A DNA stretch of 64,000 bases from Cenococcum geophilum. Lineage: Eukaryota. Numbering within the stretch: the first letter of the stretch is position 1; each line of letters starts with the position of its first letter. Both the position numbers and the translations under genes were made by a program. Location of the stretch: the NCBI GenBank assembly GCA_050273025.1, contig CP158635.1, positions 6,138,001-6,202,000 of the forward strand, written 5' to 3'. The notes under the pieces are model-generated. The model was not told the DNA's origin. It worked only from the letters and a program-made list of their open reading frames with translations, and searched no databases. This document shows positions 1 through 47,800 of this stretch, in pieces.

Positions 1-3000
1 ACTTAGTTACTTTGTCTTAAGAAGGTTTATAAGAAGGTCTGTTTTAAAAAGTAAAAACTTATAAAATAAGGTTTATAGGAACTTAGCGATAAAAAAGTAG
101 ATTCTCTTTTAGCTAAGAAGGAAATAGATCTAAGTAGTTTGGTAACTACTCTTCTTAGGTCCCCCTTAGGTAACTTATTTTTTAGTAATCCTTTTTTATT
201 AATATTATCTTACCTAATCTCTTCTAATACTCCTATACCTTTCTTATAGTATTCTTTAAATTCTATAGTAGTTCCTAGGTAGTCTTAGTATAGCCTATCC
301 ACTTAACCTTGTACTATATTTTATTGTTAATATCCTTATAACTAACGATCTTTAAAACTTACTATTTATCTTCTTCCTATCCTCTATATATGTCTACTTT
401 ATAAACCAGTAGCTTAATATTCCTGTATACTAGCTCTAGCATTACAATATACTATATAGGGTAGATCTTTATTTTAGCTGGTAGGTTTAACTTAAACGTA
501 ACCAGTAAAATTCTTTAGATAATTTTAAAAGGTCCTAGTCTAACATAGTCTAACTTCTTACTTAGTTATTAACTCTTAAAATTTTTGTATAGTAGCCACA
601 CTTTATCTCCCTCTTTAATATCTGGTCCCTTAGATCTCTTAGCATTATAGTACTTTTTTATCCTCTCTTATACTTTCTTTATTAATTCTATAAGGTCTAT
701 ATAAAGATTTATTAACGTCTTTATTCTTTCTTTAGCTATACTACTTATTTTCTTTACTTATTATAGTAATAATGATATTCTTAGCTTATATCCATAATTT
801 GCCTTAAATAGTAATATACCTATTCCTTCTTATGGTGTTATATTATATATAAACTATATAACTAGTAATAGCGATACCCAATTATTCTATACATAATTGA
901 TATAATGCCTTAAATACTGTTTTAGTGTCTAATTTAATCTTTTTATTTAACCGTCTATCTACGGATAATATGCGGTGGAAGTTACTGCCTAAACTCCTTA
1001 CTCTGCTAAAAATACTTTTTAAAATGCTGCTATAAATCTTAGATCTCTATCCGATATAATTTTACTTAGTGCTCTATATCTTATAAACACCTCCTTAATA
1101 TAGATTCTAGCGATATCCTCCGCTAAGATTTCTTTTATGCATGCTATAAAGTATCCCCACTTTATAAGCTTATCTACTATTACTAAAATTACGTTATAAT
1201 CTTATTTGGTAATAGGATCTCTTAACTTTAATAACTTAATAATAAAGTCCTATAATATGACCTTCTATAGTCTTTCTAGTATTTTAATAGGTTATAGCCC
1301 TCTATATAGCTTATGCCTTATTAATTTATTCCTTTAGTAATTTAGACACTCTTTTATTACTTTTCTTATAATATTTTAAATTTTGTTAATAATGTATTCT
1401 TTCTAAAGTCTTAATACTAAGCCTATCGCTCTATTATGTCCTTATATTATTCCCTTATAGAAATCTTCTATAAAATGCTCTACTATGCTTTTTAGGATAT
1501 ACTTTACTTCTTAATTTTCGTATATATCCATTTATAGATCTTCTAGCTATACCTTTAGAATTCTTTATACCTAAAAGCTCTTTAGTGTCTTATAGACTTT
1601 TTCTAGTTCGTTATCCTCTTAAGTTGCTATTAGCTTGGGGTGATTATATCTAATCTATCCGTCCTTATCTCTGCGTAGCATTACTCCTAATAGCTTTTTA
1701 TTATTCTATAGTTTAGCCTTTCTACTAAGTGCATCTACTCTTATGTTTTTAGTTCCCTTAGTATACTAAATCTTAAAATAGTATTTTATAAGCATCTCCA
1801 CCTATCTAACTTGTCTTTAATTAAGTTCTTTTATTATTAGGAACCCTATTAGGTTCTTATAATCTATCTTAACTATAAATAGTTTCTCTACGCCTTATAA
1901 GAATGCTCTCTATTTCTTAAGTGCTGTAATTATACCTAATAACTCCTTATTATAGACGTCATAGTTTAACTCTAGTGGTGTTATCTTCTGGCTATAGTAT
2001 AATACTAGGTGTTATGCGTCCTTATACTTTTATAGCAAATATACTCCTAGTATATAGTCTAATATATCTGTTTCTACAACTATATTTAGTCCTAGTTAAT
2101 AAATCTTAAGGATTAGCTCTTAGGTAAATAACTCCTTAAGTTCTTTAAATAACTTCTTCTATTCGTCTCCCTATACCTATAGTTTTTCTTTCTTTATAAG
2201 CCTAGTAAATGGTTTAATATTCTTTAACTATTATACTATAAACCTTCTGTAGTAGTTGCAAAACCTTAAAAATAACCTTAACTGCGTTATATTCTCTAGT
2301 TCTTACCAACTTACTATAGCTTTAATCTTCTTTAGGTCTATACTAATATAACCTAGTTTAATAATAAATTTAACGAAATTGTTCTTCCTTATAAAGAACT
2401 CGTATTTCTTAATTACTACTAGCATCTATTCTTCTTATAGTCTCTTTAAAACCTATTTAATATATTCCCCGTGTTCTTCCTTAGTTATTAAGTAGATAAT
2501 AATATTATTAAGGTATGCCATAATAAACTCATTAAGGTATTCTCCTAATACGCTATTAATTCGTTTTTAAAATATTACCAGTGTATTCGTTAATCCGAAT
2601 TATATAACTAATAGTTTATATAGTCCTTTCCTTAACCTAAAGGCTACCTTCTATTCATCTCCTTCCTTAATTTTAATTTAATGGTACACCTATCTTAGAT
2701 CTATCTTTATAAAGATTTACGCATTACCTATCTAATCCTAGATTTTGCTAATTAAGGGTAAAGGGTACCTATCCTTTTAAGTAATGCTATTTAACTGCCT
2801 GTAGTTAATACATAACCTAAGTTTTCCATTCTTCTTTAGTACGAATAGTACTAAATAACCCGCTAATAATTGCGATGGTCTAATATATCCCTTTTATAGG
2901 GGTTTTTTTAGATAAACTCTTTAAGTGCTCTTAGCTCTTCTTTAGTAAGCTTATAGGTTAGAAAGAACCTTAGACTTATTCCTAGTTCTAACTCTATCTT

Positions 3001-6000
3001 ATAGTCCTATACTATATAATCTGCTAGCTTTTCACCTTCTAGGCTCTATAGCCTTTTACTATACTTATAGTATCTCTTTAGTATATAACTTAAGCCTCGC
3101 TTAGTCTCTTTATATATTGCTCTAACTTAGTACTATACCAACTTGGTTTACTATCGCACTTTATAGCATTAAATATTTCTAATATTAACCTAACCTGTAA
3201 TCTAATTAATCTTTAGATTATATTTCTATAACTAAGGCATTCCTAATACTACCTTATCCCGTTCTAATAGTAGGATATTAAAAGATATCTTAATTTATCT
3301 TCCTTTAATAATTATCTAAATAGGTCCTATTTTAAGGTTAATAATCCCTCCTCTGTAGGCTATTAGATCTCCTAAAATTATAACTAATAGGTAAAGTTAT
3401 TCCTTCTATCTGTGAGGTAATCCTATTCTCTTAACTACTACTAGTAAGATATGGTTCCGCGTTACTCTACTATTTATTAGCACTTTAAACTGCTAATCTT
3501 ACTATTTAACTTATAAATTTAGGTGTTGTTCTTAAATTCCTTTAAGGGTCTAAGGCTCTACTATTAGGTCCCTCTGGTCCTATAGGCCTCTACTTTTCCT
3601 AACTATTAGCTATTTAATCCTATTATACTTAGCTTATTCTTTAGCTAATACCTAGTTCGCTTTTTATCCTCTATATACTATAGATACGTATTCTCTAAGT
3701 ATTTCTACTACTATTATCTATCTAAGCATTCTTCCGTAAGGAATCTTTTTAGTTAAAGTATTAAGTCCCCTAGCTCTTAAACTTCTGCTAAATACCATCT
3801 ATATATATATTTAGTATTCCTATACTATCGCTCCTCTAGCGCCCAATATATCCTTATAGGGTATTTCCAATTCTTTTCCTTTGGATTTTTATATATCTTA
3901 TATATATCATCTATATATATAATTTATAATAGCGTATAGTGCGCTAGGTGCTTTAGGTTAACTCTTAACTTATCTTTATTTTTAAGTTTAAACCTCTATT
4001 ATGCTAATCTAAATATTATAACTTTGTTTGCAGGTACTAAAATACGCCTTTTACTTCTCTAGTCCTCTAATTATTCCTCTAGATCTTTTAACGTTATAAT
4101 TAAGGCTCCTTTAATATAAGTTATAGCCTTCTCTATAATAGGGTAGTCTTAGATAACTTATTCATCCAACTACATATAAAAATCTTCCTACTTATTATTA
4201 TGTCGCTGCCTATACTACTTTTAGTATAGCTATTAGAGTGTATACGGCTTGTCTGTAAGAAAGTATCTTCTTATTACTACGTTGTAATAGCCTTTAGTAT
4301 GTCGTCCTTTAAACCTAGTAGGGATCCCTAGATCCTCTTCGTTTTCTAGTTTAATAAGCCACTTAGCTCTTAGTATACCTACCCTAAACCTATTAGTGAT
4401 TTTTCGTACTAGTGCTCTGTCCCTTATACGACCTAATATACTAGATCTCTTATTTAGTTTCTGTTCTTACTATACGATAATCCTTTATCTAAATTCTTCT
4501 ATAGTTTCCTTTAGTTTGCGTCTTATAAATAGATCCTTAAAGTCTTCTTACTTCTTAATTTTAGTATTAACATTTTGATCCTATTGCTAAGTCTTACTCG
4601 CAATTTCTTTAATAGTCCTTATTCTATTACTAAAATCTTAGTCCTATAGGATTTTTAATCCTAAGCTTACTTCTATCTTAAGCTTAGCTCTAGCCTTAGT
4701 CTAACTAGGCTTTACTAGTGTTCTTATCTTATCTTAAGAGTCTTAAATCTTACTTATCTTGTCTTAAGAATCTTATACCTTAAGGAAACTTCGTCCTAAG
4801 CTTATTTGTATATTACTAAACTAAGCCGTTGCTCTGCTCTATTGGTTATTATCTATTATAGGTCTTTAAGCTTACCTTATCTTATTTTAAGAATCTTGGT
4901 TATCTCTTATCTTATCTTAAGAATCTTAAGCCTTTGGCCTTTTGCCTTTATTAAGTGCCGAAGTGGTTTACTGCCCTACTTCTCTTATATCTTATAAAGC
5001 GATAGATATTATATCTAGTAGGGCCTTAATCCCTACTAATATTCCCTGTTCTATAGTGGAATTATCCTCTACCTCTTATATAATATCTCTAAGGTCTATA
5101 TACTCCTAGTAAGCTGCCTTTATTACCTTATTGTCACAGAATATTTCGCCTATATTAAATTTATTATCTTTAATATCCGATCTGCGAACTAGTTCGTTGG
5201 TTCCTCTATATTCTGCTAAGTATAGCTCCTATAGCTAATAGCTTACGCCATACTTAGCGTCCTTATAAATTTGGCATACGTTATTATAATAAAACGCAAA
5301 ACTTTTAATTAAACACTCTTTTGTTCCTCGCAGTATATTATTATCCCTTTATACGTATATATCGTCTATTAGTCTTATTCCTTTTACTATATAGTAGCTC
5401 TAACCACTTCTATAGTCTTTAATATAATAACCCTATTTTCTACAATTTATATAAGCTCCCTCTTTAAACTATTTTTCTTACTATAGAGTCCGCCTAAACG
5501 TCTTCTACTGCTAAGATCTCTAGTTTAGCCTCTACTTCTTAGGTCTCTAATTACTTAATCCTTACCCTCTAGGTTTCCATAATTTCTTATTTTATCTTTT
5601 AAATTCTTTAGTACCACTTAGGTCTATTAGCTTTACGCTATACTATAATTTCTAACTTAGCTTTAGTTGTTATATACTTTACGCCTTATATAACTATAGA
5701 ACTCTATCCTAACCTTTCTTAGCCTATTCCCTTTAGTAGATCTAATTGTTAATCTTAATTACTTAATCTATTAGTTCCCGTAGGGTTTCTGTATCTTCTA
5801 TTAAAATAATTACGTCCTAGACTTTAGCCTTAAGTCCTTATTTATACTGTACCATAAGCGCCTTATTATTCTACTTAACTTACGTTACTAATGTCTGGAA
5901 CTATATTATATACTTAATCGCTAAGGTTTGTTACATAATATCTTAAAGTTTTCTTTCCGCTATAGTTACTACCTCTAGGTCTCTAAATATCTACATAAGT

Positions 6001-6913
6001 TACTCTATAAACCCTTCCTAGCTTATAAACATAAACTATACTTCTTAATTAGTGGTCGTCATTCTATTCGCTTATATTTCCGTAAGGTAAGGCTTAAACT
6101 ACTTAAGTGCCCTTTTTAATAGGAATAGTCCTGTATATACTATTCGATCTATAGGTATTAGCAGCTTTGCTTCTTTTTGCGTAACCTTAAAGTATATTTA
6201 TATAAGGAATTTTTTAAGTTTTAATCTTTCTTCCGAGTACCTTTTAATTAATAGTAATTTAATCTTTGCTACTCCTATCCCATTAATCCTATTTTCTAAT
6301 ATCGTATTATTTTCTATTAGCTAGTTAACTATCTCTTATAGTTGTCCGACCGTTATAGGTTGCTATAAGTTAGTATCTGCCATATTAGTATTACCTAACC
6401 TTAAAGTAGTTGCCGCCGTTAATGGCGTTATAGTGGCTGCTTTTAGTAGCATATTGTTTAACTTTATTAATGCCGTAACTTTGGTAGTAAATATATAATA
6501 AAGCCTTATAGTAGGAACTACAGTGGACTTATTAATAGGCTAGGTATATAGGTAAATAAGAAGTTGACAACGTAATAATAACTAGTAGAGTAGTTGCCTA
6601 ATAGATTAACTCTAATTGTATTCTAAGATTCACTATAAAGAAGAGAACTATCTAGGTAGGGACTGTAGTCCTTTAAATACACAACCGTACTCTTAAGAAA
6701 TCCCCTTTATACGTAAGGTACGTGTTATACGTATTATATATACGTTCCCTTTATACACTGCGTATACTGCGTACAACGTCATATAACCTTAGTTACCATT
6801 CCTCGTCACATAGCTCTATCGGCTCTATCCTAGACCGTGCCTAAATTAACCAACTAGCTTCTTCCGACTCTTCTCTAAGTAGTCGTAGCATTGTACTTAA
6901 AGCGTCTATAACA
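1..6913 (-). mobile_element. Ty3/Gypsy (chromovirus) LTR retrotransposon, copy 1, RIP-degraded, 3' end runs off the window
   Basis: Reverse-complement homolog of 17997-25922 across gag, PR, RT, RH, IN and chromodomain. 5' LTR is ~6494-6913 and starts TGTTATAGACGCT on the minus strand. Inserted into the LINE at 6914+. Confidence 0.93.
6494..6913 (-). repeat. 5' LTR of Gypsy copy 1
   Basis: Similar to LTRs 17997-18421 and 25498-25922 (GTACGGTTGTGT, CCTACCTAGATAGTTC, GGCAAC.ACTC blocks). Confidence 0.85.
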
Positions 6914-17033: not shown

Positions 17034-17996
17034 GCGTCTCTTATATATCCTTAGGGCAAAAGGCTTCCTAGAATAGATTATATAATTTATTTAAGGGTTT
17101 ATAGGTTAGAGAGAAATATTACTAATCTTTAGTAGATACTAGAGCCCCCCTATTGCAGTTATAACAGGAATACTATAAGGATTACCCTTCTCGCCTATAC
17201 TCTTCCTTTTCTTTATAAGTAACCTACTTAACTCCTTTAAGAAAGGGGCGACCTAGGGGATAGGCTTTGTTAATAATATAAACCTAATTATATACGGGCT
17301 AATAGCTATAGAGAATTGCAGAACACTAGAGAAAGCTTATAATACCTATATAAAATAGACAAGACAATATAGAGTCCAATTCTTACTAGAGAAATACCAG
17401 CTAATCTACTTTATAAGAAAACGCAACCAATCTATAGATCTTTAGCACATAATTTACGTTTAAGGCTTTAGGGGTTAACTAGTTTAGGGCCTAAGGGTAT
17501 TAGGAGTATAGGTAGATAGTAAGCTTTAGTGGAGTGTATATGCGGCGCAAGTAGCCCGTAAGGGCTAAGTATAATATATTATATTATTTAGGATCGTTAA
17601 TTCTATATAGGGTCTATGCTTTTAGAGGTTACGCCTACTATATACAGCAGTTGTCCGGCTAACTATAACGTATAGGTCTAGTATTTGGGCTATTAGAGAA
17701 TCTAAGAAAGGCCCCCCTAAATTGCTCCTTAAACCACTCTAAAAGGTCTAAATAGCCTGCCTTTAGAGTATAATAGGCGAATATAAGCAAACGGCTATAG
17801 CACTGCTTAAAAAGGAAGCCAATATTTCCCCCCTATAACTATATATTAAAGCCGCTATAATATAAAGGGCGTAAAATAAACGCAACTCTAATATTATAAA
17901 GTATATTAAAACACGCCTAAATAAACTATAGAGGGACCCTAGGGCGCCCTATAGGAGAATAAACTAATAACCCTAAAGTAGGGAAGATATATTAGA

Positions 17997-20900
17997 TGTT
18001 ACGGACGCTTTAAGTACAATGTTACGACTACTTGGAGAGGAGTTGGAAGAAGCTAGTTGGTTAATACAAGCACGGTCTAAGATGGAACCCGTGGAACCAT
18101 GTGACGAGGAATAGTAAGCAGAGTCACGTGATGTGATCTATATAATCTGTATAATCTGTGAGATCTATTATAGAGCGAATAGAGTAGATAGAGTAGATAG
18201 AGTAATAACTTTCTTAGAAGTACGGTTGTGTATTTAAGGACCCTTAGTCCCTACCTAGATAGTTCCTTCCTTGTAGTAATTCTTAGAATATAATTAGAGT
18301 TAATCTATTAGGCAACCACTCCACTAGTTATTATTACGTTGTTAACTTTTATACTTGCATTTCCTATATACCTAGCCTATTAACAAACCTATTGTAGTTC
18401 TTACTATAAGGTTCCGTTACATAATTACTACCTAGTTACGGTATTAATATAAGAAGTCGAATAATATGCCACTAAAAGCAGCTACTACGACGCCATTGAC
18501 GGTAGCAACTACTTTAAGGATAGGAGGTGACACTAGTATGGCGGATACTAACTTATAGTAACCTATAACGGTTGGACAGCTATAGGAAATAGTTAACTAG
18601 CTAATAGCTAATAATATAGTGTTGGAAGAAAGACTTAATAGGATAGGAGCAGTAAAGATTAAGCTACTATTAATTAAGAGATTTATAGGAGAGAGGTTAA
18701 AGCTTAAAGGATTCCTTATATAGATGCATTTTAAGGTCTTATAGGAGGGAGTAAAGTTACCTATACCTGTGGATCGGATAGCCTATACAGGACTATTCTT
18801 ATTAGGAAAAGCACTTAAGTGGTTTAAACCTTACCTTACGGAGATATAGGTAAACGGAATGATGACTACTAACTAAGACGTGCGATTTATATTCTTAAGT
18901 TAGGAAGGATTTATAGAATGACTAATGTAGATATTTGGAGACCTAGAAGAAATAACTATAGCGGAAAGAAAACTCCAGAACCTTATGTAATGAACTTTAG
19001 TAATTAAGTATATAATATAGTTCTAGACACTAGTAATATAAGTAGAGTAGAATAATAGGGCGCTTATGGCATAGTATAAATAGGGACTTAAGGCTAAAGT
19101 CTAGGACGTAATTATCCTAATAGAAGATGCGGATACCCTAAGGGAACTAATAGATTAGGCGATTAAGATTAATAATTGGATCTACTAAAGGGAATAGGCT
19201 AAGAGAGGCTAGGATAGAGTTCTATAGTTGTATAAGGCGCAAAGTACATAATAATAAAAGCTAAGTTAGAAACTATGGTATGGCGTAGAGCTAATGGACC
19301 TAAGTGGTACTAAAGAAGCCTATAAGAGATGGAGTAAACTATAGAAACCTAGAGGATAAGGATTAAGTGATTAAAGGTCTAAGGAGCAGAGGCTGAATTA
19401 GGGATTTTAATAGTAGAAGACATTTAGGTGGACTCTATAATAAGAGAAATGGTTTAAAGAAGGAGCTTATATAAATTATGGAAAACAGGGTTATTACGTT
19501 AGAGACTGTAGAAGTAGGTAGAGTTACTATATAGTAAAAGGTATGAGATTAGTAGACGATATATATGTATAAAGGGACGATAATATACTACGAGGAACAA
19601 AAGAGTATTTAATTAGAAGTTTTGCGTTTTGTTATAATAACGCATATTAAATTTATAAGGACGCTAAGTATGGCGTAAGCTATTAGCTATAAGAGCTAGC
19701 ACTTATAGGATGTAAAGGAACTAACGAACTAGTTTATAGATTGGATATTAAGGACGATAAATTCAACCTAGGCGAAATATTCCGTAATAATAAGGTAATA
19801 AGGGCCGCTTACTAGGAGCGAGTAGATCTTAGAGATGTTATACTAGAGGTAGAGGATGATTCTATTATAGAATAAGGAACATTAATAGGGATTGAAACCC
19901 TACTAGATATAATATCTATCGCTTTATAAGACGTAAGAGAAGTAAGATAGCGAACTACTTCGGCACTTAATAAAGGCAAAAGGCCAAAGGCTTAAGATTC
20001 TTAAGATGAGATAAGAGACGACTAAGATTCTTAAGATGAGATGAGGTAAGCTTAAGAACCTATAACGGATAGAAATTGATAGAGTAGAGTAGTGGCTTAG
20101 TTTAAAGATATACGAATGAGCTTGGGATAAGAATTCCTAACGGTATAAGATTTTTAAGATAAGATAAGTAAGATTTAGGACTCTTAAGATGAGACAAGGA
20201 CACTAGTTAAGCCTAGTTAAACTAAGGTAGGGGCTAAGCTTAGGTTAGAAGTAAGCTCGGGATTAAAGAACCTAAGGGGTTAAGAATTTGGGGTATAAAT
20301 TAGGATACCTATAAATAAGAGGCCGGGAGCTTCTTTATAGATTAGAGAATCTGCGGCATAAATAGTAATTAAACTGGGAGACGAATATATGGACCTAGAG
20401 GATTTACTAGTTAAACGAAGTGTTTAGACTAAAGATTGAAAAGCCAATATTAGGATTAAGAAGTAAGATAACTTTAAGAATTAGAGCGTAAGGCGCAAAC
20501 TAAAAGAATTATCGCGTGGTAAGAATAGAAACTAGATAAAAGATCTAGTATATTAGGACGTATAAAGGACAGAGCACTAGTATAAAGAATTACTAATAGG
20601 CCGAGAGTAGGTATACTAAGAGCTAAGTGGCTTACTGAACTAGAATAAGAAGAGGATTTAGGGATTCCTATTAGGTTTAAGGAATGATATACTAAAGGCT
20701 GTTATAACGTAGTAATAAAGAGATATTTTCTTACGGATAGACCGTATATACTCTAGCAGCTATACTAAAAGTAGTATAGGTAACGACGCAATAATAAGTA
20801 GGAAGATTTCTATATATAGTTGGATGAAAAAGTTATCTAGGACTACCTAATTATAGAGAAGGCTATAACGTATATTAAAGGAGCCTTAATTATAATATTA

Positions 20901-23900
20901 AAGGATCTAGAGGAACGTTTAGAGGACTAGAGAAGCGAGAGGCGCATCTTAGTACCTGCGAATAAAATTGTAACGTTTAGATTAGTATAATAAAGGTTTA
21001 AACTTAAGGGTAAGAATAAGCTAAGAGTTAACCTAAAGCACCTAGTATACTATATAATATTATAGATTGCGTATATAGACGATATATGCGAAATATATAA
21101 GAATCTAAAAGAAAAGAATTAGAAATACCCTATAAGGATATACTGGATAACGGATAAGTAATAGTATAGGAATGCTAAATATATATATAGATGGCATCTA
21201 ATAAAAATCTAAGAGGAAGGAAGTTTAGTACTTTAACTAGGAAGATTCTTTACGGAAGAATGCTTAGATGGACAATAGTGGTGGGAATGCCTAGAAAATA
21301 TGTGTCTATAGTATATTAAAGATAAAAAGCGAACTAGGCATTAGCTAAAAAATAAGCTAAGTATACTAGGATTAAGTGGCTAATAGTTAGGAAAAGTAGA
21401 GGCCTATAGGACTAAAGGGAGCTAGTGGTAGAGCCTTAAACCCTTAAAGGAATTTAAGGACAATACCTAAATTTATGGATTAATTGGTAAGATTAGCAGT
21501 TTAAAGCGCTAATAAATAGTGGAGTAACGCGAAACTATATCTTACTAGTAGTAGTTAAGAGAATAGGGCTACCTTATAGATAAAAGGAGTAACCTTACCT
21601 ATTAGTTATAATTTTAGGAGATTTAATAACCTATAGAGGAGGGATTATTAATCTTAAAACAGGACCTATTTAGATAACTATTAAAGGAAGATAAATTAAG
21701 ATGTCTTTTAATATCCTACTATTAGGACGGGACGAGGCAGTATTAGGTATGCCTTAGTTATAGGAATATAATTTAAGAATTGATTGGATTATAGGTTAGG
21801 TTAATATTAGAGATACTTAACGCTATAAGATGCGATAATAAGCTAAGTTAGTATAGTACTAAGTAGGAGCAACCTATAAAGAAATAGAAAAAGGACTAAG
21901 CTATGTACTAAAGAGATACTATAAGTATAGTAAGAAACTATAGTTACTAGAAAGTAAAAAGCTGTTAGAATATATAGCATGGGACTATAAAATAGAGTTA
22001 GAACTAGAAATAAGTCTAAAGTTTTTTCTAATCTATAAGCTTACTGAAGAAGAGAATAGAGTGTTAAAAGAGTTTGTCTAGGAAAATCTACGAAAGGGAT
22101 ATATTAGACTATTGCAGTTATTAGCGAGTTATCTAGTACTATTTGTACTAAAGAAGAATAGCAAACTAAGGCTGTGTATTAACTATAGATAGTTAAACAG
22201 CATTACTAGAAAGGATAGGTATCCTTTACCCTTAATTAGCGAAATCTAAGACAGGATAGGTAATGCGTAAATCTTTACAAAGATAGATCTAAGATGGGCG
22301 TACCATTAAATTAGGATTAAAGAAGGCAACGAATAAAAGGCAGCCTTTAGGTTAAAGGAAAAACTATATAAACTATTAGTTATGTAATTTAGGCTTATAA
22401 ACGCACTAGCAACGTTCTAGAAGCGTATTAATAATATATTAGAAGAATACTTAGATGAATTTGTTATGGTATATTTTAATAATATTATTATCTACTTAAT
22501 AACTAAGGAAGAATATAGGGAACACGTTAAATGGGTTCTAAAGAGACTATAAGAAGAATAGATGCTAGTAGTAATTGAGAAATACGAGTTCTTTACTAGG
22601 AAGACTGATTTTATTGGATTTATTATTAAACTAGGCTAACTTAGTATAGATCTAAAAAAGATCGAGGCTATAGTGAATTAGTAGGAACTAGAGAACGTTA
22701 TATAGTTAAGATTGTTCTTAGGGTTTTGTAATTACTATAGAAGGTTTATAGCGTAGTGGTTAAAGGATATTAAGCCATTTACGCGGTTAATAAAGAAAGA
22801 AGAACTATAGGTATAGGGGGAAGAGTAAAGAGAACTCTTTAAGAAAGTTAAAGAGTTGTTTACCTAGGAGCTAGTTCTTAAGATCTATTAACTAGGACTA
22901 GAGACGGTTGTAAAAATAGATGCATTAGACTATATACTAGGGGCGTGCTTTATATAAAGGCATTAAGATAGATAGCACTTAGTGGTATACTATAGTCGGA
23001 AAATAATACTACTGGAGTTAAACTATAATATCTATAACAAAGAGTTATTAGGTATAGTTACAGTATTAAAGGAATAGAGAGCATTTTTATAAGGTATAGA
23101 GAAACTATTTATAGTTAAAACGGATTATAAGAACCTAATAGGATTCCTAATAATAAAGGAACTTAACTAAAGATAGGTTAAATGGGCAGAGATGCTTATA
23201 GAATACTATTTTAAGATTTAGTATACCAAAGGTATAGATAATACGCAGGCAGATACTCTAAGCCGTAAAGCTAAACTATAAAATAAGGAAAAGCTATTAG
23301 GGGCTTTATTACGAAAAGATATAGACGGATTAATTAGGTATAATTATCCGAAAATTACAGTAACTTAAGAAGATAATAAACTAGAGAAAGTCTACGAGAT
23401 ACCAGAAAGCTTTTGGGCATAAAGAATTCTAAAAATATAGCTAGAAGATTTATAAACGGATATATACAAAAATCGAGAAGTAAAGTATATTCTAAAAAGC
23501 ATAGTAGAGTAATTTATAGAGGACTTCTATAAGGGACTAACCTAAGGATATAATGGAGCTATGGGCTTAGTATTAAGACTCTAGAAGGAGTACGTTATTA
23601 ATAGAATCTAGAGGATAGCCAAAAGGGTTATAAAGGAATATTTAGATTACTAAAGGAATAAACCGACAAGGCATAAGCCATATAGAGGGCTATAACCTAT
23701 TAAAATACTAGAGAGACTATAGGAGGTCATATTATAGGACTTTATTATTAAGTTACTAAAATTAAAAGACCCTATTACCGGACAAGATTATAACGCGATC
23801 TTAGTAATAGTAGATAAGCTTACAAAGTGGGGATACTTTATAGCATACACAGAAGAAATCTTAGCAGAAGATATCGCTAGAATCTACATTAAAGAAGTGT

Positions 23901-25922
23901 TTATAAGATATGGAGCACTAAGCAAAATCATATTAGATAGAGATTTAAGATTTATAGTAGCATTCTAGGAAGTGTTTTTAGCGGAGCAAGGAGTTTAAGT
24001 AGTAACTTTTACCGTATATTATCTATAGACAGACGGTTAAACGGAAAGGTTAAATTAAACGCTAGAGTAGTACCTAAGACATTATATTAATTATATATAA
24101 AATAATTGGGTATCGCTATTACTAGTTATATAATTCGCATATAATACAACACCTTAAGAAGGAATAGGTATATTACTATTTAAGGCAAATTATAGATACG
24201 AGCTAAGAACATCGTTATTACTACGGTAAGTAAAGAAAACGAGTAGTACAGCTAAAGAGAGAATAAAGATATTAATGAATCTTTATGCAGACCTTATAGA
24301 ATTAGCAAAGAAAGTATAAGAGAGAATAAAAAAGTACTATAATGCTAAGAGATCTAAGGGACCAGATTTTAAGGAGGGAGATAAAGTATAGCTACTATAC
24401 AAAAATTTTAAGAGTTAATGACTAAGCAAGAAATTGGACTACGTTAGACTAGGACCTTTTAAAATTACATAAAGGATTTTACCGGTCACGTTTAAGTTAA
24501 ACCTACTAGCTAAAATAAAGATCTACCCTATATAGTACATCGTAATGCTAGAGCTAGCATATAGGAATGTTAAGCCACCGGTTTATAAAGTAGACACGTA
24601 TAGAGGATAAGAAGAAGATAAATGGCAAGTATTAAAGATCGTTAATTATAAGAACATCGATAACGAGATATGGTATAAGGTTAAGTGGATAGGCTATACT
24701 AAGACTACTTGGGAGCTACTAGAGAATTTAAAAAACGCTATAGAAAAGGTATAGGAGTATTAGAAGAGATTAGGTTAGGTAGTATTAATAAAGAAGAATT
24801 ACTAAAGAATAAGTTACCTAAGGGGGACCTAAGAAGAGCAGTTGCCGAACTACTTAGATCTGTTTCCTTCTCTATTAGAAGAGAATCTATTTTTTTATTA
24901 CCTAGTTCCTATAGACCTTATTCTATAAGTTTTTACTCCTTAAAGTAAACCTTCTTATAAACGCGTTAAAGACGCTAAACTTTTATAAAGGTAGACTGCT
25001 AAGCCTTAAGGGCATAAGCAAATTCTTTGGATTAATGATAGGCTTTTACTAGCGCTGCGGTAAAATTACCCTTAAGTTTTTCTGCCTTAGATTAAACACG
25101 AGACCCTAAAATAAATTAATTAGGGAACTAGATGACTATTAAGAGTAATAGCTTACGTATATTTAATATTAGAGATAGAGCGAATATTATAGGATAACCG
25201 AATATTTGCTTTAGTGCACTCTAAATAAGAGGAAGGTTGCCAGGATAAAGGACTTGCTAACGTAACATAAACTAGCCCCTCTTTTATATAATAAGAACAC
25301 GGAGATAGTATTATCTCACTAAGAGACAATATTATAGCAACGGTACGAGACTAATAGGCTGTAGAGGAAGAAGAAGGTGCTTTAGGTATTATAAGTAACA
25401 ATATTAACTAAATTAATTAGACGGATATTATACCTCTAGTAAACGACCTAGAGATATTAGGTATCTTTAAGGACGAAGATAAAGAGGAGGAAGATGGTGT
25501 TACGGACGCTTTAAGTATAATATTACGACTACTTGGAGAGGAGTTAGAAGAAGCTAGTTGGTTAATATAAGTACGGTCTAGGATGGAACCCGTGGAACTA
25601 TGTAACGAGGAATAGTAAGTAAAGTCATATAATGTAATCTATATAATCTATATAATCTATAAGATTTATTATAAAGCGAATAGAGTAGATAGAGCAAATA
25701 GAGTAATAACTTTCTTAGGAGTACGGTTGTGTATTTAAGGACCCTTAATCCCTACCTAGATAGTTCCTTCCTCGTAGTAATTCTTAGAATATAATTAGAG
25801 TTAATCTGTTAGGCAACCACTCTACCAGTTATTATTACGTTGTTGACTTTTGTACTTGCATTTCCTATATACCTAGCCCATTGACGAACCTATTGTAGTT
25901 CTTGCTACAAGGTTCCGTTACA
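17997..25922 (+). mobile_element. Full-length Gypsy (chromovirus), copy 2, RIP-degraded
   Basis: 425-bp LTRs 17997-18421 and 25498-25922 (TG...CA), TSD TTAGA, PPT AAAGAGGAGGAAGATGG (25481-25497). Relics of gag CCHC (~19465), PR LIDSG (~21510), RT KIDLRWAYHQIRI (~22280), IN HPQTDGQTE (~24020) and chromodomain WYEVKW (~24670). Confidence 0.96.
24790..25389 (-). pseudogene. Antisense accessory gene inside the Gypsy: Zn2Cys6-like motif, intron, coiled-coil (RIP-mutated)
   Basis: Frame from 25389 reads PCSYYIKEGLVYVTLASPLSWQPSSYLECTKANIRLSY. Reverting four TAT codons to TGT gives C-x2-C-x6-C-x13-C-x2-C-x8-C. Intron-like (G)TACGT...CTAAT...TTTTAG at ~25160-25106. 3' limit is approximate. Confidence 0.65.
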
Positions 25923-27873
25923 TTAGAGAAATAAATAAAGAAAGTAAAAGAAGAATAGTGCTGCTTTAGGGCCCAGGCCTATATAAAGGAGGAAGGGAAA
26001 CGTATAAGAGGCCAGTAAAGATAATAGTAAGAGAGAGAAAGGAGCTAAAGTAAAGTATAAAAAAATGCTAGGAAACTATCTACCGTAATATAATACTGGC
26101 TAGACTAATACTAAAAAGGTATATAGGAGTTAAAGGTATAGAGGCTAACTAAGGCAAAAGAAACCTAAGCCGTAGCATAGTTAACGCTATAGGGGGTAAA
26201 TACTCTAGGGCTCTAAGAAGGCCTAATAAAGGTAGAAAATATAATAGCAACACTTTTAAGAACAGGAATAATAGGACTAAAAGACTGGCTCTACTGGGTA
26301 GGTATCCTAGTAGGTAGCCTAAGATGCGAATATAGCTGGCTAAGATAGACACCAAAACACGTAATACTATTATGCCCCTTACGCACTAACTAAGAAGTAA
26401 TGCTCTTAGTAGCTAGTATAGAGAACTATAATACACTACTCTTAATATAAAAAGGCCTTAAGGCGGTTACCTAGTAGCTTATTAGCTAAAATATACTAAA
26501 CCAGTTCCGGGTTACAAAGGAAATAGTAATAAAGGGCGGGGGGGGCGAGTAACGGGCGCCCCCTGATAACTCTATAGTGGTAAAGTAAAGTTTATAATAC
26601 TAGCGCGTCCGTAAGCTTATTACGGCAGCAGTAGTTTCTAAGAAGGTTAAAAAGTAAGGTAGTAAAGCACTATAGGTAACTCGTAGGCGCCTTACAGGCG
26701 CCTTATAGGCGAGTCCTAAAAGGCAAGGAGATAGATTATAGGGTTTTCTTAAATAGAGTTTTCTCCCTATATATATATAAGGAGTAGTCCGCGTGGGCCT
26801 AATAGGGATCCAAATCGGACGTTAAGCAATGAATAATAATAATAAGTATATATAATATTATAAAATAGTTATAAAAGAATTATATTATATTTAACTAATT
26901 TACTAATATTTTCTTACCTAAAACTAAATTATTTAGTAATAAAGCTTAATTATTATTTTTAAATAGCTATATAAGCCACTCTATAATTAAGTTTTTATTA
27001 AAATATGTATAATATAATATATAACTTATTTTTCTACTACTTTAATTAATATAATAACCCTTAAATCTATTCTATTTTTCCTTTATAAAATTAAACTATT
27101 AGGACTAAATTATAGAGCTTATACTTCTTAATAATATAACTTAAATTAAAGGGTACTATTTTACTAAGTACAACTATAAAGCCTTAAAAGAAGGCCTCTT
27201 AGCAAAAATAGTTAAATTTAGGTAGTATACCTTTAGTATTTATCTATAGAATCCGTATAAGGGCTTTAAGTCTTTATAGGTTAAAAATAAGGCTTTAATA
27301 GAGGCTTTAAGCTTTAAATAAGCTAATGGTAATTGGTTTAATATTATAGACACTCTAAAAAAGCCTTATAATATATATTAGGTAATTTATAGCCTTTATA
27401 ACGAGTATATACTTAATTAAAAGACTTAGTTACTTTTATAAAGAGGAAGTCAACAACTTAAGCAACTTACTGTAGAGGCTATATATAAAGACGCTTAAAT
27501 ATATAGCTTGGGATCACAGCTTAAAGGCCTTAAAGGCCTAAAATTTTATAGGTAGGCAGCTATAGATCTAAATATATAATTTATAAATATATAATTGATT
27601 AAATAAGATATAAAGGAAGTAGAGGAGAAAGAGGATAAAATAAGGGCAAAGGAGTTAAGAGTAAAGCCTTAAAAGGCGTCAGATAGAAAGGCCAGGGCTA
27701 GTTTACTAAATAGCACATAGGGGTAGAATATTAGATTGATTTGGTTAAGAATAGATAGCTTTAAAAGTGGTAGGGTTTGATTTGCTTAAGTGGCCGAGTT
27801 CTAGGGGTCCGAGCTTAACTCTTATTAGCACCTACTTAATTACTTCTGTAATCGGAAACTAGAGAAAGGTTAT

Positions 27874-41533: not shown

Positions 41534-42318
41534 TAACCTGGTACTAACCTAGGCCTTAAAAACGCGTCTGAAAAGTAGGGGCCACTACCTAAGGGGGGGG
41601 TGATATTTGGACGATATGTCGCGGACCTTGGGGGGTCGTGCGTAACCCGAGGTTATGCCAAGCCTAACCCGGACCTCCGATACCTTGGCACACTTAACAC
41701 GCCGTATGCATGTGACGAAGCGGGACAAATGCATCCTCAGTCGGCGCCCAAAGGACGGAAGGGAGCTGAGCTTGTCAGATTGACGACTTGAAATCATGGG
41801 CCTAGAACGTCCCATCAGCTCTGCGGCCTCAGCCGCGGCAACAATCTTACAAAGCTGGCGATGTAAAAGCGTGCTGATGTGAACGCGTGCTATTTCAGCC
41901 ACTTACAGCCAAATGTCGCGGCTGAACGATACAATACAGCATCTCATGCAGAACTCGGATCGAAGAGTCCGAAGCCACCCGATGAATGATCAATGTCAAT
42001 TGGACCATCGGGAGCCCAGCTAGCCACACTATGTGAAATGTGCTGCGGTTTCGGCGCGCGCAGCATGCCGGACACAGTTTTGTGCACGACCAGCTCCAAC
42101 CCGATCTTTAGCGAGCGCGCCGAGATCCAAATCCGGCACATAGCAACCCTTGCATGCAGCCACAGCAATTTACCACAATTACAGCGTCTCTTCAATTCCG
42201 GTGGTTAGCGCAGCCACGTCTGCACGGCCTTTTTGTAGGGGAACTTTTGGTATTTTTGCTGTTTAAGGGAAAGTTAATAAAACACGCTAACCACCGGATG
42301 TGCCAGGAGGCTGTACTA

Positions 42319-42477
42319 CACCACCTTGGCGCATCCCGTTGAAAGCGCGTGTTGATCGCGTAGATCAAACCACGCGGATTTATACCCAACAATACGCTAA
42401 AATATGTTAAAATAGTCGTGCTTATTACTTTCAAGGTATAAAAATTGTGGCGTTTGACCGGATGCGCTAAGGTGGTG
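42319..42477. mobile_element. Small TA-flanked MITE-like element
   Basis: TA|CACCACCTTGGCGCATCC ... GGATGCGCTAAGGTGGTG|TA. Confidence 0.75.
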
Positions 42478-42479
42478 TA

Positions 42480-43037
42480 CCCCTTCGTGTGGCAAAATGC
42501 GATTTTTGATTGGGGCGTATTTAGCCTTCCTGCTCAGCCTCGGTTGGGTTGGTTGGTGGCGTTTTGGTGGACCCCACCACCAAAAACACGAAAATCGACC
42601 TAATGGAAGGATGCTTTGAAAGGTCACCATAAAAAGGTCATCAAATATGTATTTTTTGAGAAAGCTGGGCAGAAAGTCGTAATATATAACGTCATAGTTA
42701 TACGTTCCTGGCCCTTCTCTATTAACTACCTGCTAGTTATATAGGAAAATCCTCCCTTAGAGCCTCAAATCCTTACCACCTGTAGACTTTATACGCGTTC
42801 TTGACGTTAATAAGGATAAGCTAGTAGAGGACGTGTTGTATACGTCAAATGGGGTAGATTAAGTACTGCAGGTGATGGAACGGTTTAAGTGTGAAGAAGG
42901 CGCCAGTACCCCTGCCGCCGAGCAATTGCATTGACCAGAGGCTTCAACACCAAGTCATATACGGTATAGAGCCTCTAGATTGGCTTGAGAGGCTTGCATA
43001 TACGAAAAGTGCAAGAAATCGTTGCCACACGAAGGGA
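42480..43037. mobile_element. TA-flanked MITE-like element upstream of the laccase
   Basis: Perfect 15-bp inverted repeat CCCTTCGTGTGGCAA (42481-42495) / TTGCCACACGAAGGG (43022-43036), extending imperfectly to ~55 bp, with TA on both sides. Confidence 0.65.
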
Positions 43038-43377
43038 TAGAAGTAGTGGATGGCGTACCGAATTCGAATCTCGCCAGAGGGGAGGTGGAAGCTAGTCATG
43101 CCCAAAGCTTTAGCCCTTCCATTAGCTTTAGGTTATAATATTGACACAATGACAGCTAAGCTTCAACTCAGCCCAAAGCTGTCCGCGTTGTGTCTTCCGG
43201 ACAATTCATCTCTTTGGCTTGACGATAGATATTCTTTATCGACAAAGCGGAAGTCAGTCTCGCCTCGTCTTCTCCTACTTCCTTATACTTCCTAGAGCTA
43301 CACTATTGGCCAAGCTCTGTCCTTAGAGACTCTCTCCATCAACTGCGCCAGCAAGAATCTTGCGAAGCAATATCAGG

Positions 43378-45871
43378 ATGCATCTCTTCGGGCGTTTTTG
43401 GACGACTGTCACCTATTTTGCGAACTTGTTGACGCTTTCGCCCATCAATCCGCCCGGACCTCAACAACACCCAATCCCTGGTATATTGGACGTCGGGCTT
43501 AACGTCCTCCCACATTATCCAATCTTCAAGCCTCCCGGTGGCCGTCCTCAAGGCCCCGGCTCGGATTTCAAATGTGATTACAGGAGGATGCCGGGCTGGT
43601 ATGAATGCTCAACTCCCGAGAACCGAGGATGCTGGCTTCGCCATCCTAATGGACGAGAGTACAATATACTCACGGACTACGAGAACGATGCACCGATTGG
43701 CGTCGATCGTAACTACACTTTAGTGGTGAATGATGGCTGGGTCAATGCGGATGGTGTGAACTTCACAGTCGCAAAACTGTTCAATAATACCTTTCCGGGA
43801 CCATGGATTCAAGCCTGCTGGGGTGATGTAAGTACTGAACTTGGTGATCGTTACTGCATAATGATTCCGACGGTCTAAAGCTTATTTATCTTGCAGAGAC
43901 TCAACATCAAGGTTATAAATAATCTCGGTCACAACGGCACAAGTGTCCATTGGCACGGAATACGGCAGAAGAATACCATGCACATGGACGGTGTCAACGG
44001 CATCACCCAATGTCCTATCGCGCCTGGCGATCACTTCATCTATACCTGGAACACAACGCAATATGGAAGCTCCTGGTACCACAGCCACTACTCTGTGCAG
44101 TACGCTGACGGCCTGCAAGGCCCAATTGTGAGTTGCTCATGTTCTCGTTACCACGTCCCAAGTTAGAGCCTGATCGAACGTCTACGCTCGTACACCAATC
44201 TGTCAATACGATGCCAGGATACGGGAGAACTGAGCATGAGAGTAGAGGCTAACCCATCTAGACTATCCATGGTCCTTCGTCCGCGTCCTTCGACGAACCA
44301 AAACTTCCATTATTGATGACAGACTGGGGTAAGTGGACTTGCATCCGAAGGATAGGATCTGCGTTGCGGTCTCGAGACTGCATTCTGGGAGCTGGTATCT
44401 CGTTTACCGAAGTAAAGGCTGCATATGCTGACATGCGAACAAGGCCACAATAGTGCGTTTGAGGCAATTTACAATCGCAACCTTCAAAAGCCAAGTATTT
44501 TACTGAACGGCCGTGGGAATGTGACTAATTTCTATGGAAACAAGAACACCTCTGCCATCCCGCCAATTTATCAGTTGCACTTTGAGAAAACAAATATTAG
44601 ATTACCTGGCAGAGCAAAGCGGTACTTGCTGCGCCTCATCAATACTTCATTCGATTCGACATTCATCTTCTCGGTTGACAACCATTGGCTTAAGATTATT
44701 GGCGCAGACTTTGTCCCGATTGTGCCTTACTACAATACATCTGTGCTAATTGGCATTGGTCAGCGGTACCATGTAATTATTGAGGCAGATCCCGTTGGTG
44801 GTGTCGCGAACCCGCTGCCCAAGGACGGGAATTTTTGGATACGAACCTGGGTCGCAGATAGTTGTGGGACACCGGGTGGTTCAACTGGCTACGAACAGAC
44901 TGGTATTCTGCGGTATGGCAATACTAGCACATCTGATCCAACCTCGAAGCCATGGACCAACATTTCTAAGCGGTGTTCGGACGAGACCTATTCCTCCCTG
45001 AAGCCCAAGCACCCGTGGTTCGTAGGTCAAGCGGTAAATGGCAACGATGGCGAAGAATTTGACGTAACTTTTAATGGAACAGCCAAACCTTTTCTGCTGG
45101 CAAAATTTTCACTGGAACCACCGTCAGCTTCTGGCTTCACTCCTCTTCAAATTAATTACAGTGATCCGATATTCTTTCATCTTGACAATTTCGCGGGCAC
45201 ATGGCCTAAAGAATGGGTCGTCGTACCCGAGAACTATACCAGTACCGATTGGGTGAGTCGTACCACAGCTTCTATACTAACACGTTATTTTGTCATCAAC
45301 TTGGAGGACCTGATACTGACTAAGACCGTGCAGGTATATCTAGTTCTTACCGGCGCCGGGAGGAATAACACGTCCGGCGCACACCCTGTAGGCAATGTCT
45401 CGAAAGCAATGCACTAGCAGGGGAACTAACATATTTCAGATCCACTTACACGGTCATGACTTCGCAATACTCCAGCAAGTCGAAGGCACACCTTATTCCC
45501 CAGAGAAACTCGATCTCACCCTCATTAATCCTCCGAGGCGTGATGTGGTTCTTCTGCCTAGAAACGGCTTCGTTGTCATCGCCTTCAAAACCGACAACCC
45601 AGGAAACTGGCTGATGCATTGTCATATTGCGTACCACGCTTCGTTTGGTCTGGCCCTGCAAATACTCGAGCGACAGGCTGATGCGAACAAAATTTGGCCA
45701 CACGGAAAGTCAAATGCACTCAAGGAAGCAGGACGAGTGTGCCAAAATTGGAACACTTGGTACGGTGACTGTAACAACTGGTGGCCGGGCGTAAATCAGA
45801 CAACCGGGGTGAACCCATCCTGCAACGGGACTGAACCGCTGCATATATTCCAAGATGATTCCGGTATTTAA
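43378..45871 (+). CDS. Laccase / multicopper oxidase (AA1), ~680 aa. Exons 43378-43827, 43897-44127, 44262-44328, 44444-45252, 45334-45387, 45440-45871
   Basis: All four copper motifs: HWHG, WYHSH, HP|IHLHGH and [12 protein letters not shown] (Leu at the axial position). Ascomycete C-terminal DSGI. Five GT-AG introns keep the frame, with no premature stops. Confidence 0.96.
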
Positions 45872-46433
45872 AAGAACGCAAGTACTTTTAGAGCGGTATT
45901 AGACGGGACGATCCCAAAGTATTAGCAGTATCCTCCAGCACATTATTACTGCTATCTGGTAGTGCTGTGGGTCTTTTGGCCACTCTCTAAACGCTTAATC
46001 TTGGTCAGGCAAGGTACGTCTATTAAGTCTTTATCAATGCTACTTTTTAGGTCTATTTGCGGATAAAAAGGTGTCTAAAGGTAACTTTTAGATATTAATT
46101 ATCTTCTTTTATTTGCTCTTAGCCAAATTCTAGTTCTATATCTAAATAAAAGTTATAAGTAAAATAAATCCAAGTCTTGATTTATTAACTACCTTTATAT
46201 TTATGCCACTGCTAGTCATACACCCCCCACCAAACAGGCTTAGATCGTTCCTCTTCAGGTTAGAACATCACGTGTGTTTGACTTATGCATCTACGTCGCG
46301 AAAATCAAACTTTTGTGACTGCACGTGTATTACCCCCTATTAAAACAATACACCTACTATAACTCTACTAACACGGCTTTATATTTTATAAATTGGGGCT
46401 AGTTTTATAGCTTTAGTAAAGGGCTATAAAATA

Positions 46434-47114
46434 GGGCAGTGCTATTTGGACACCCCCTAATTGCTAGGTGTACACCCCCCCAAATCGGGTTTGGCGCCTG
46501 CCTCAATAAGTTAGAATATCACGTGCGTTTGACTTATTTGCATCTGCATCGCGAAAATCAAAGTGCGCGCCTGTCCAAATTAACACCGCATTTGCCTTAA
46601 CTTTGCATCCAAAAGCCTGCAACTATAGAGCGTTGCCACGGTTGGCCAATTGGCTCTACAACTAGCTCTACAATTGCCAATCGCGTCGATAGATTTACTT
46701 GTAGAGAGCCCTGAGCATTTGAGCGAAATACTGGCTAGAGTCCTACCGGGCGCATGCGTCGGCGCGGCGCGGGTGTGGGCGCGGAGGCAGCTTACAGATA
46801 TTAAGTAGAGGTGGCAGCACCTAAATTAGTTCGCGCGATACTTTGCAAAGTACTACGCAATCTAATTAATCGCTCCTTTAGCGCGTTCTAGATTTGGACT
46901 TTACTACTTATACTATAACTAAAATTAAGACTTAATCGTGGTGTTGCAGTCATGGCGCGCACTTTGATTTTCGTGATGCGGGCGCAAACAAGTCAAACGC
47001 ACGTGATATTCTAACCTATTGAGGCAGGCGCTGAACCAAATTCGGGGGGGGTGTCTACCTAGCAATTGGGGGGTGTCCACCTAGCAATTAGGGGGTGTCC
47101 AAATAGCACTGCCC
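46434..47114. mobile_element. Non-autonomous TIR element, ~140-bp TIRs, 8-bp TSD (Mutator- or hAT-like)
   Basis: GGGCAGTGCTATTTGGACACCCCCTAATTGCTAGGT... is mirrored at 46954-47114. TSD ATAAAATA at 46426-46433 and 47115-47122. A diverged partial TIR copy lies at ~46218-46315. Confidence 0.9.
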
Positions 47115-47267
47115 ATAAAATAAGGCCCTATTTATAAAATATAAAGCTGTATTGGTAAAGTTATAGTAGGGTAATACACGACATTTGGCTTTGGGCGAGC
47201 TTCTAATTTTTTGCGACCAATAGTAAAAAAAAGGACTTTATAGGCCTTTACGCAGGCTTCTAGGCTA

Positions 47268-47609: not shown

Positions 47610-47800
47610 TAATAAAAGCCGCCAGTTTACTAGGCTATTTAAGCAGCTTATAAGTAGTCTTTTATATTTAATATATAAGGTTTAAATGGCATAGCTGTTG
47701 TTTAATAATAAATTTAAAAGTTAATGTTTAATGTTCAATGTTCAGATTCGGCAATATTCTACTTTAGGAAACCCATTAGCTTAAAAAGGGAAGCGGTCTA

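Follow-up and report, generated by a model that had tools for sequence, protein, structure and literature searches.

An antisense, intron-containing accessory gene, probably inactivated by repeat-induced point mutation, in a Ty3/gypsy chromovirus of Cenococcum geophilum

Long terminal repeat (LTR) retrotransposons are commonly thought to carry gag and pol alone. In a stretch of 64,000 nucleotides from Cenococcum geophilum (contig CP158635.1; this whole stretch is called the window, and positions are counted from its first letter), we analysed an additional gene on the minus strand of a Ty3/gypsy chromovirus that has been degraded by repeat-induced point mutation (RIP). An antisense gene of this kind, brtn of the Botrytis Boty elements, was reportedly described by Zhao et al. 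in 2011 (Virology 417:248). HBZ of human T-cell leukaemia virus type 1 (HTLV-1) is an antisense basic leucine zipper (bZIP) protein of a vertebrate retrovirus; it is small, is made from a spliced mRNA, and has a nucleic-acid-binding-type module beside a dimerising helix. In the passages of later papers that refer to it, brtn is an additional antisense gene of the Boty-like (BcGypsy1) Ty3/gypsy elements of Botrytis cinerea (PMC8365987, PMC7264820, PMC4227169, PMC5987419) and is missing from standard genome annotation (PMC8365987), while a Monilinia transcript is said there to be similar to BRTN as well as to a truncated Pol with a chromodomain (PMC5987419). Plant elements with antisense extra open reading frames (ORFs) between pol and the 3′ LTR include Grande (gene23), RIRE2, Retand and PvRetro13; the review section concerned describes these ORFs as conserved within families, with some nuclear products and a function that is unknown, urges the study of spliced antisense transcripts, and places the antisense promoter of HBZ in the 3′ LTR (PMC7264820). 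Our literature search found no paper that links Zn2Cys6 with both LTR retrotransposons and antisense genes, and broader searches gave nothing more on fungi. Going by the citing passages, we found a single fungal antisense gene at this position in print, brtn, and its function is unknown.

Between the chromodomain and the polypurine tract of a complete LTR element, the minus strand from 24738 to 25389 is a two-exon gene with a 55-nt intron. We consider it very probable that this antisense gene is real, and likely that the explanation as a whole holds, namely that a Ty3/gypsy chromovirus family has a genuine accessory gene, and that the copy of it at 24738–25389 has been killed by RIP. The parts of the gene in the window are as follows.

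25161 to 25389, minus strand: exon 1; the start codon is now ATA, and there is one internal stop, at 25353
25106 to 25160, minus strand: intron, 55 nt; donor AT and acceptor AG in the window copy
24738 to 25105, minus strand: exon 2; eight internal stops, stop codon TAG at 24740–24738, 3′ end overlapping the end of pol
25189 to 25299, minus strand: six-cysteine motif C-x2-C-x6-C-x13-C-x2-C-x8-C; window residues C, Y, Y, Y, C, Y

Read from 25500, the minus-strand frame gives ...SPCSYYIKEGLVYVTLASPLSWQPSSYLECTKANIRLSY..., that is, C(25299)-x2-Y-x6-Y-x13-Y-x2-C-x8-Y, in which two of the six cysteines are kept and four TAT codons specify tyrosine. An earlier interpretation made from the letters of this DNA (the sequence-only reading) had pointed to these two cysteines and four TAT codons at Zn2Cys6 spacing, and they can be read directly on the minus strand from 25299 onward. 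The window copy is dead, with the start codon ATA, the donor AT, four cysteines changed to tyrosine and nine internal stops in total. The roughly 700 extra bp between the chromodomain (about 24620–24760) and the polypurine tract (about 25468–25497) were found as described, and the interval proposed for the gene, 24790–25389, was correct in its location; its 3′ limit was 52 nt short, because the stop codon lies at 24740–24738.

When the 64-kb window was read in six frames, there were two occurrences of the spacing with C or Y at each site, the second being a low-complexity repeat at 58315; shuffled windows contained a mean of 0.21 matches. When the minus-strand interval 24760–25468 was shuffled, 8 of 5000 shuffles matched. 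The unrepaired stretch of the window matched no Pfam family. The rarity of the pattern in shuffles argues against the view that no gene exists here and that the pattern reflects either chance in AT-rich, RIPped DNA or conservation of the sense strand, which might carry a prolonged C terminus of pol or 3′ sequences acting in cis. Such a view can draw on the frequency of tyrosine codons after RIP and on the scarcity of stops on the antisense strand of a purine-rich element, and it is taken up again below with the codon-phase results.

Based on a profile search of 1.84 billion representative proteins, we obtained 232 matches at E<=1e-3, and two extra word searches seeded with the least damaged match yielded relatives of normal composition. 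The full spacing with C or Y was present in 163 of the 224 retrieved proteins, the sites switching almost exclusively between these two residues. All six cysteines, at spacing 2/6/13/2/8, were found in P0196, P0214, P0120 and P0146. P0196 (152 aa) and P0214 (239 aa) read ...MPSCSRCA..LVC...(13)...C..C........C..VRSVSDAE-W-SRV..., followed by a long Glu/Arg/Ala-rich stretch, and the end of P0214, ...SMLPDVISDNTPVPFP, corresponds to ...LILPNLISSNTPIPFL-stop in the window. The sequence-only reading had named a consensus with tyrosine at the four sites, or a closed spliced frame, as results that would contradict it; the undamaged relatives have cysteine at all four and an open spliced frame.

Excision of 25160–25106 fuses T25161 with GG25105–25104 to give TGG, the tryptophan codon expected from removal of the intron-like segment. 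The joint at 25161/25105 was exact in six distinct database proteins (P0196, P0214, P0216, P0219, P0220 and P0222; for example ...SDAE-W-SRVQ...), which cross the predicted junction as ...[ES]-[EK]-W-S-[RQ]-V..., share 46–78% mutual identity and come from contigs of 921–1423 nt. Two of the six, P0196 and P0214, extend over the cysteine region, and one, P0219, carries the label ‘hypothetical protein’ from the Joint Genome Institute (JGI). These proteins bear out the gene model of the sequence-only reading, splice junction included. The intron is retained in genomic relatives: P0215 enters the donor with ...DAKCARR, and P0223, which lies on a 120-kb contig, leaves the acceptor with ...VVG-SRVQ. 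In tblastn comparisons with the window, exon 1 was matched by P0196 aa 5–81 and by P0214 aa 39–102 at 25350–25156, and exon 2, in a different frame, by P0214 aa 102–238 at 25103–24744 and by P0222 aa 7–128 at 25103–24741. The two halves of P0214 thus lie in two frames that meet at 25156/25103. The existence of spliced relatives is a second argument against the absence of a gene.

The real donor is G25160 T25159, which reads GTACGC when de-RIPped and AT in the window, with a GTAAGC look-alike 4 nt downstream. This look-alike (25156–25151) was rejected as donor, being private to the window copy; the family reads GCGTCC there, two of the four differences are transversions, and nearly all contigs compared differ from the window at 25152, inside the look-alike. 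A 49-nt intron with a donor at 25154 was ruled out by the tryptophan junction of the spliced relatives. A seventh cysteine (profile column 77, Y106/C30) was also discarded, since it consists of the last exon-1 base T plus the GT of the intron and is absent from the mature protein.

Upstream of the coding region, a read-through segment of P0214 (aa 8–22) aligns with 25507–25463, from the polypurine tract into the LTR edge. We take the intron-less contigs to be probable transcripts that start in the LTR. In many copies the exon 1 frame is open for 80–100 codons further upstream (25390–25600, minus strand), through the polypurine tract into the LTR, as in P0215, P0198, P0062, P0105 and P0120, and this stretch showed a weak third-position excess of 2/1/8 at a stricter threshold. 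We rejected a longer protein beginning in the LTR, as P0214 uses another frame there and P0196 starts with MPPK, and treated the upstream run as a stop-poor leader; a longer isoform through it may exist.

In a scan of JGI metagenome contigs, a relative was encoded in 614 of 625 candidate stretches, and we retained the best 80 loci. From these, 64 stretches were aligned with the window copy (65 copies in total) over window 25600–24600, and the 64 metagenome copies are colinear with the window from LTR to chromodomain along all 1001 nt. With a 64-codon open stretch as query, a word-based protein search returned 47 ORFs at 59–88% identity. The 64 colinear copies bear out the proposal that the gene belongs to the element family, as does a second copy of the element in the window (copy 1), where the second exon had been noticed and where tblastn with P0222 and P0214 matched 16–246 on the plus strand.

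In the 64 other copies, the six cysteine sites had TGY/TAY counts of 38/26, 19/45, 7/57, 4/60, 60/4 and 23/41, respectively, with no variation other than between TGY and TAY. The proposed change of cysteine to tyrosine by RIP agrees with this, since the four tyrosine sites vary between TAY and TGY only and the undamaged P0196 and P0214 have all six cysteines. The 64 copies retain 35–65% of RIP-prone sites, and none has six cysteines, the maximum being five; because per-site retention of G is broad, sites 3 and 4 are undecidable from these copies alone. Among the 65 copies, the start codon was ATG in 10 and ATA in 54, the donor was GT in 5, the acceptor was AG in 62, and the intron was 55 nt long in all.

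RIP produces transitions only. We therefore counted columns polymorphic by transversion at each codon position (1/2/3), with the following results.

25389–25162, exon 1: 12/2/27 (p=9e-6)
25160–25106, intron: 3/5/6 (not significant)
25103–24741, exon 2, in its own frame: 25/18/48 (p=3e-4)
LTR and leader: 4/3/8 (not significant)
23400–24600, integrase control, pol frame, 46 copies: 22/12/36 (p=0.002)

We counted 18 distinct indel events within the coding exons; 17 of them were multiples of three (exon 1, 5/5; exon 2, 12/13), and the cysteine core contained none. The conceptual spliced coding sequence was divisible by three in 64 of 65 copies. These observations indicate that the antisense gene evolves as protein-coding sequence in two frames. 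Past about 24850, the pol frame would place the highest variation at the second codon position, and because of this misfit the antisense gene, and not the tail of pol, constrains the region. Every pol-frame stop up to 24941 has a CAA, CAG, TGG or CGG variant among the other copies, and the true pol stop is uncertain, as the codon-phase pattern past about 24850 is unlike pol.

Two alternatives can be weighed against these counts. The first is that the antisense RNA itself is functional, pairing with the genomic RNA to feed small RNAs or to damp pol expression, and that the ORF is incidental. The transcript would overlap the 3′ end of pol, the possibility is raised in review passages on the plant antisense extra ORFs (PMC7264820), and Botrytis LTR elements are given as strong small-RNA sources in the part of PMC8365987 concerned. 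A pure RNA function would not, however, produce a third-position transversion excess in two frames that switches exactly at the intron, nor indels that keep the frame, nor six cysteines and long motifs kept among relatives of just 46–62% identity, and for these reasons we reject it as very unlikely. The second is the absence of a gene. RIP can account for all pol-frame stops up to 24941, and a liberal de-RIP consensus is open in all six frames; the phase order, with position 3 above position 1 above position 2, nevertheless suits the minus-strand frames and not that of pol. As far as sequence data allow, a chance pattern is refuted by the relatives, the two-frame tblastn matches and the codon phase, and the absence of a gene seems to us scarcely credible.

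Four sequencing runs were compared with the window at 80% likeness. DNA depth over 24972–25363 was 3- to 100-fold below that of pol and the LTR, and individual contigs omit the region, both of which could be taken as signs that no gene is present; the low-depth stretch coincides, however, with the variable, indel-rich middle of the helix described below, and was seen under a likeness cut-off of 80%. In run X1, a DNA contig omits 596 nt, with 24901 linked to 25498 through 6 other letters, and other contigs omit 25139–25496 or 24959–25382. Because these contigs skip its region, some family members seem to lack the accessory gene. In the metatranscriptome run X18, a contig at depth 4.4 omits 54 nt in 25382–25437, and the accessory start codon with them; on the plus strand the omitted segment has GT..AG ends. 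Splicing of the sense strand, a deletion variant or a copy from another organism could each explain this gap.

In the raw RNA run X21, 85% of the reads continue into unlike sequence. Since all are less than 95% alike to the window and most continue in this way, the reads appear to derive from related expressed elements. Reads at 24692–24859 and 25420–25531 always had the first mate on the plus strand (the strand convention of the library is not known), and those in the LTR at 25756–25867 were mostly in the opposite orientation, with five starts clustered at 25820.

Several results weigh against the explanation of a RIP-killed accessory gene with a zinc-cluster product. All genomic copies examined are dead, with 3–12 internal stops each, and the third cysteine is tyrosine in 57 of 64 copies and in the nearly undamaged relatives P0096 and P0215. 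The openness of the de-RIP consensus is uninformative, because a liberal one has no closed frame among the six. For the intron-less contigs, an origin as transcripts is suggested by their size and by the intron-blind gene calling of their source. Among the 61 reads of X21, none was more than 95% alike, none fell in 24860–25139 and none had the joint 25160/25106; X18 likewise showed no joint at 25160/25106, and the four runs together gave no read or joint in support of the splice. These two runs neither support nor exclude expression of active relatives.

Further points of the same kind concern the cysteine module. In all 225 scans, Zn_clus (PF00172) stayed under its 21-bit cut-off; the best match had 14.5 bits and E=0.04 (P0217). 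A DUF3716 (PF12511) match was obtained for P0215 only, at 15.4 bits against a cut-off of 22 (E=0.018, profile 3–59 of 59). A profile of 22 relatives gave zero matches to the PDB at E<=10. In AlphaFold models of P0196 and P0214, the predicted local distance difference test (pLDDT) score of the cysteine region was 49–65. Finally, the middle loop has 13 residues, one above the classical range of 5–12, and the stretch between the second and third cysteines has one Lys.

Judged from its relatives, the antisense product appears to be a small six-cysteine, long-helix protein. AlphaFold predicted a single helix with pLDDT 95–99 for residues 77–151 of P0196 and 98–200 of P0214, and a disordered tail. 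The helical stretch noticed after the intron is thus part of a helix of 75–100 residues; the helix stood, and the de-RIPped version offered for it had been corrected slightly too little, as the relatives read ...EKVREKVRSKEWKLVEQGLQEL. For the cysteines, classical Zn2Cys6 proteins have the spacing C-x2-C-x6-C-x5-12-C-x2-C-x6-8-C, and Gal4-type clusters have several basic residues between the second and third cysteines. As to the assignment as Zn(II)2Cys6-type, the undamaged relatives have the six cysteines with a middle loop one residue beyond the classical range, and the match to the Zn_clus profile remains below threshold. Sub-threshold Zn_clus matches with E between 0.04 and 0.08 occurred in P0196, P0217 and P0218, and the seven weak matches in the 225 scans mostly covered profile positions 18–38 of 39.

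Given its cysteine spacing and its cluster-then-helix layout, the protein therefore resembles Gal4/PPR1, a resemblance that stops short of membership of the Zn2Cys6 family. The best single-sequence match in the PDB was the PPR1 zinc cluster 1pyi (E=0.56), and the nearest ESM Atlas cluster (204 aa, 77 members, Ascomycota, score 0.90) was automatically named ‘Zn(2)-C6 fungal-type domain-containing protein’. The other Atlas neighbours are anonymous ascomycete clusters, one of which, with a score of 0.76, includes DUF3716 in 28% of its members; neighbouring clusters have 52–646 ascomycete members. On this sequence evidence the six cysteines may bind zinc as a Gal4-type cluster. That the protein is a DNA-binding regulator is a tentative proposal, to which we give a little less than an even chance.

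The gene may instead be real with a different cysteine module, zinc-binding or disulphide (for example of DUF3716 type), in which case the protein would work by contacting proteins or RNA. It might serve the life cycle of the element as an accessory factor, such as a chaperone or an adaptor for nuclear import or targeting, or might act as a decoy that draws off silencing proteins of the host. Much of the above is consistent with such a module: the weak and partial Zn_clus matches, the full-length coverage of the DUF3716 profile by P0215, the Atlas neighbour with that domain, the empty PDB profile search, the cysteine region without a confident fold, and the few basic residues between the second and third cysteines. 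On the other side, the spacing matches Zn2Cys6 apart from one additional loop residue, Gal4 and PPR1 likewise have a long helix after the cluster, both PPR1 and the Zn(2)-C6-named cluster come out on top of their searches, and the DUF3716 match is itself sub-threshold and absent from the other 224 scans. We regard a module of this other type as possible but rather doubtful.

In the reading we prefer, that of an accessory gene for a zinc-cluster-like protein, the transcript in active relatives would run opposite to gag-pol and begin at the inner edge of the 3′ LTR or within that edge, where the read-through of P0214 at 25507–25463 is the sole hint of a candidate antisense promoter. In the 65 copies, the inner 100 nt of the 3′ LTR had zero indels and few transversions. 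The single 55-nt intron would be spliced out of the antisense transcript, and would persist through retrotransposition because it is antisense to the genomic RNA. The mRNA would encode a protein of about 195 residues, with a short N-terminal part, the six-cysteine module, and a single helix of about 100 residues that is probably a dimerising coiled coil; the C-terminal tail would be disordered and Ser/Asp-rich, with its last codons overlapping the end of pol. By analogy with HBZ of HTLV-1, the protein might bind nucleic acids as a dimer and regulate the element or host silencing. Because undamaged relatives still make the six-cysteine, long-helix protein, the element family probably has its own regulator.

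A bolder extension would make this widespread ascomycete chromovirus lineage ‘complex’ in the retroviral sense. Each element would encode a spliced, dimeric zinc-cluster transcription factor from an antisense 3′ LTR promoter, binding the LTR or host chromatin to activate the element or to blunt genome defence, as a fungal counterpart of HTLV-1 HBZ and possibly as the source, or a captured form, of host Zn2Cys6/DUF3716 genes. We think this extension unlikely.

The element that carries the gene is a RIP-degraded Ty3/gypsy chromovirus, delimited as a 7.9-kb unit (17997–25922) by a direct-repeat pair of 426 nt at 92% identity. Its features, and those of copy 1, are listed below.

17992 to 17996 (left copy) and 25923 to 25927 (right copy), no strand: target-site duplication TTAGA (5 bp), identical bases on both sides
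17997 to 18421, plus strand: 5′ LTR, TG...CA, 92% identity to 25498–25923 across 426 nt, ends read off the sequence
18423 to 24941, plus strand: RIP-degraded gag-pol frame (frame of 18401), from Pfam on the stop-as-X translation
25468 to 25497, plus strand: polypurine tract, a purine run abutting the TG of the 3′ LTR
25498 to 25922, plus strand: 3′ LTR of the pair
25 to 6913: copy 1, inverted and truncated by the window start; in blastn, 20503–24962 matches 4486–25 at 84% identity
16 to 246, plus strand: exon 2 relic in copy 1; tblastn with P0222 aa 51–128 and P0214 aa 160–238

In the plus-strand stop-as-X translation, Pfam matches were RVT_1 (about 22148–22627), RT_RNaseH (about 22901–23206) and SH3_Tf2-1, the Tf2-type SH3 domain of integrase (about 24377–24550); the chromodomain was recognised by eye and had no Pfam match. 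The gag-pol frame contains 225 stops, and the element is therefore heavily RIPped. In antisense orientation, the polypurine tract lies inside the 5′ leader of the accessory gene.

Most of the window is AT-rich (GC 0.26–0.38), with a GC-normal island at 42–53 kb. Three further direct-repeat pairs (27870–28039/33758–33927, 52723–52898/60410–60585 and 28030–28662/63473–64000) have 82–95% identity and spacings of 5.9 kb, 7.7 kb and 35 kb, respectively, which suggests other LTR elements or repeat families; tblastn with P0196, P0214, P0222 and P0223 did not find the antisense gene in them. Within the island (42000–53000), two neighbouring open stretches at 44416–45868 on the plus strand match Cu-oxidase (E=6e-17) and Cu-oxidase_2 (E=1e-26). 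They represent a laccase-like multicopper oxidase host gene flanked by RIPped repeat blocks.

If the reading is true, many fungal Gypsy elements bring their own regulator, by way of a conserved, spliced antisense gene for a cysteine-cluster/coiled-coil protein. This would bear on the escape from, or tuning of, silencing and on the shaping of AT-rich, RIPped compartments of fungal genomes. Such antisense genes are overlooked by standard annotation or listed as anonymous host ‘hypothetical proteins’. The window copy is a dead relic, and its value lies in the family and in the RIP-aware reading that recovers such genes.

Compared with the Gal4/PPR1 Zn(II)2Cys6 proteins (PF00172), the antisense product shares C-x2-C-x6-C ... 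C-x2-C-x8-C, a linker and a long helix, and there is local similarity to PPR1 (PSCSRCAKEGLVCV vs PSCKRCAKLEVPCV). It differs in that its relatives are sub-threshold in Pfam, with a 13-residue middle loop, few basic residues and an unsure AlphaFold fold, and in that a protein of about 195 residues is without the usual regulatory middle domain. DUF3716, a fungal cysteine-rich domain of unknown function, is spanned almost end to end by P0215 and carried by an Atlas neighbour, but the match, at 15.4 bits against 22, was found in one of 225 scans.

HBZ offers an analogy only: an antisense gene from the 3′ LTR, spliced, for a small protein with a module beside a helix. The differences are that HBZ has a basic leucine zipper, not a cysteine cluster, and belongs to a vertebrate retrovirus. 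The plant extra ORFs have the same position and orientation; their elements are of other lineages, we claim no similarity in sequence to them, and a cysteine cluster is not reported for them in the relevant section of PMC7264820. As described in the papers that cite it, brtn too belongs to an ascomycete chromovirus, in which it is an additional gene placed in antisense after pol and before the 3′ LTR, a comparison made by description only. The Monilinia transcript, as presented in the passage of PMC5987419, fits the overlap of the window gene with the end of pol. An intron, six cysteines and a long helix are not mentioned in the passages citing brtn. The window gene adds a new, though dead, member to a kind of antisense gene that is carried by elements and has been little studied; brtn is the closest known case.

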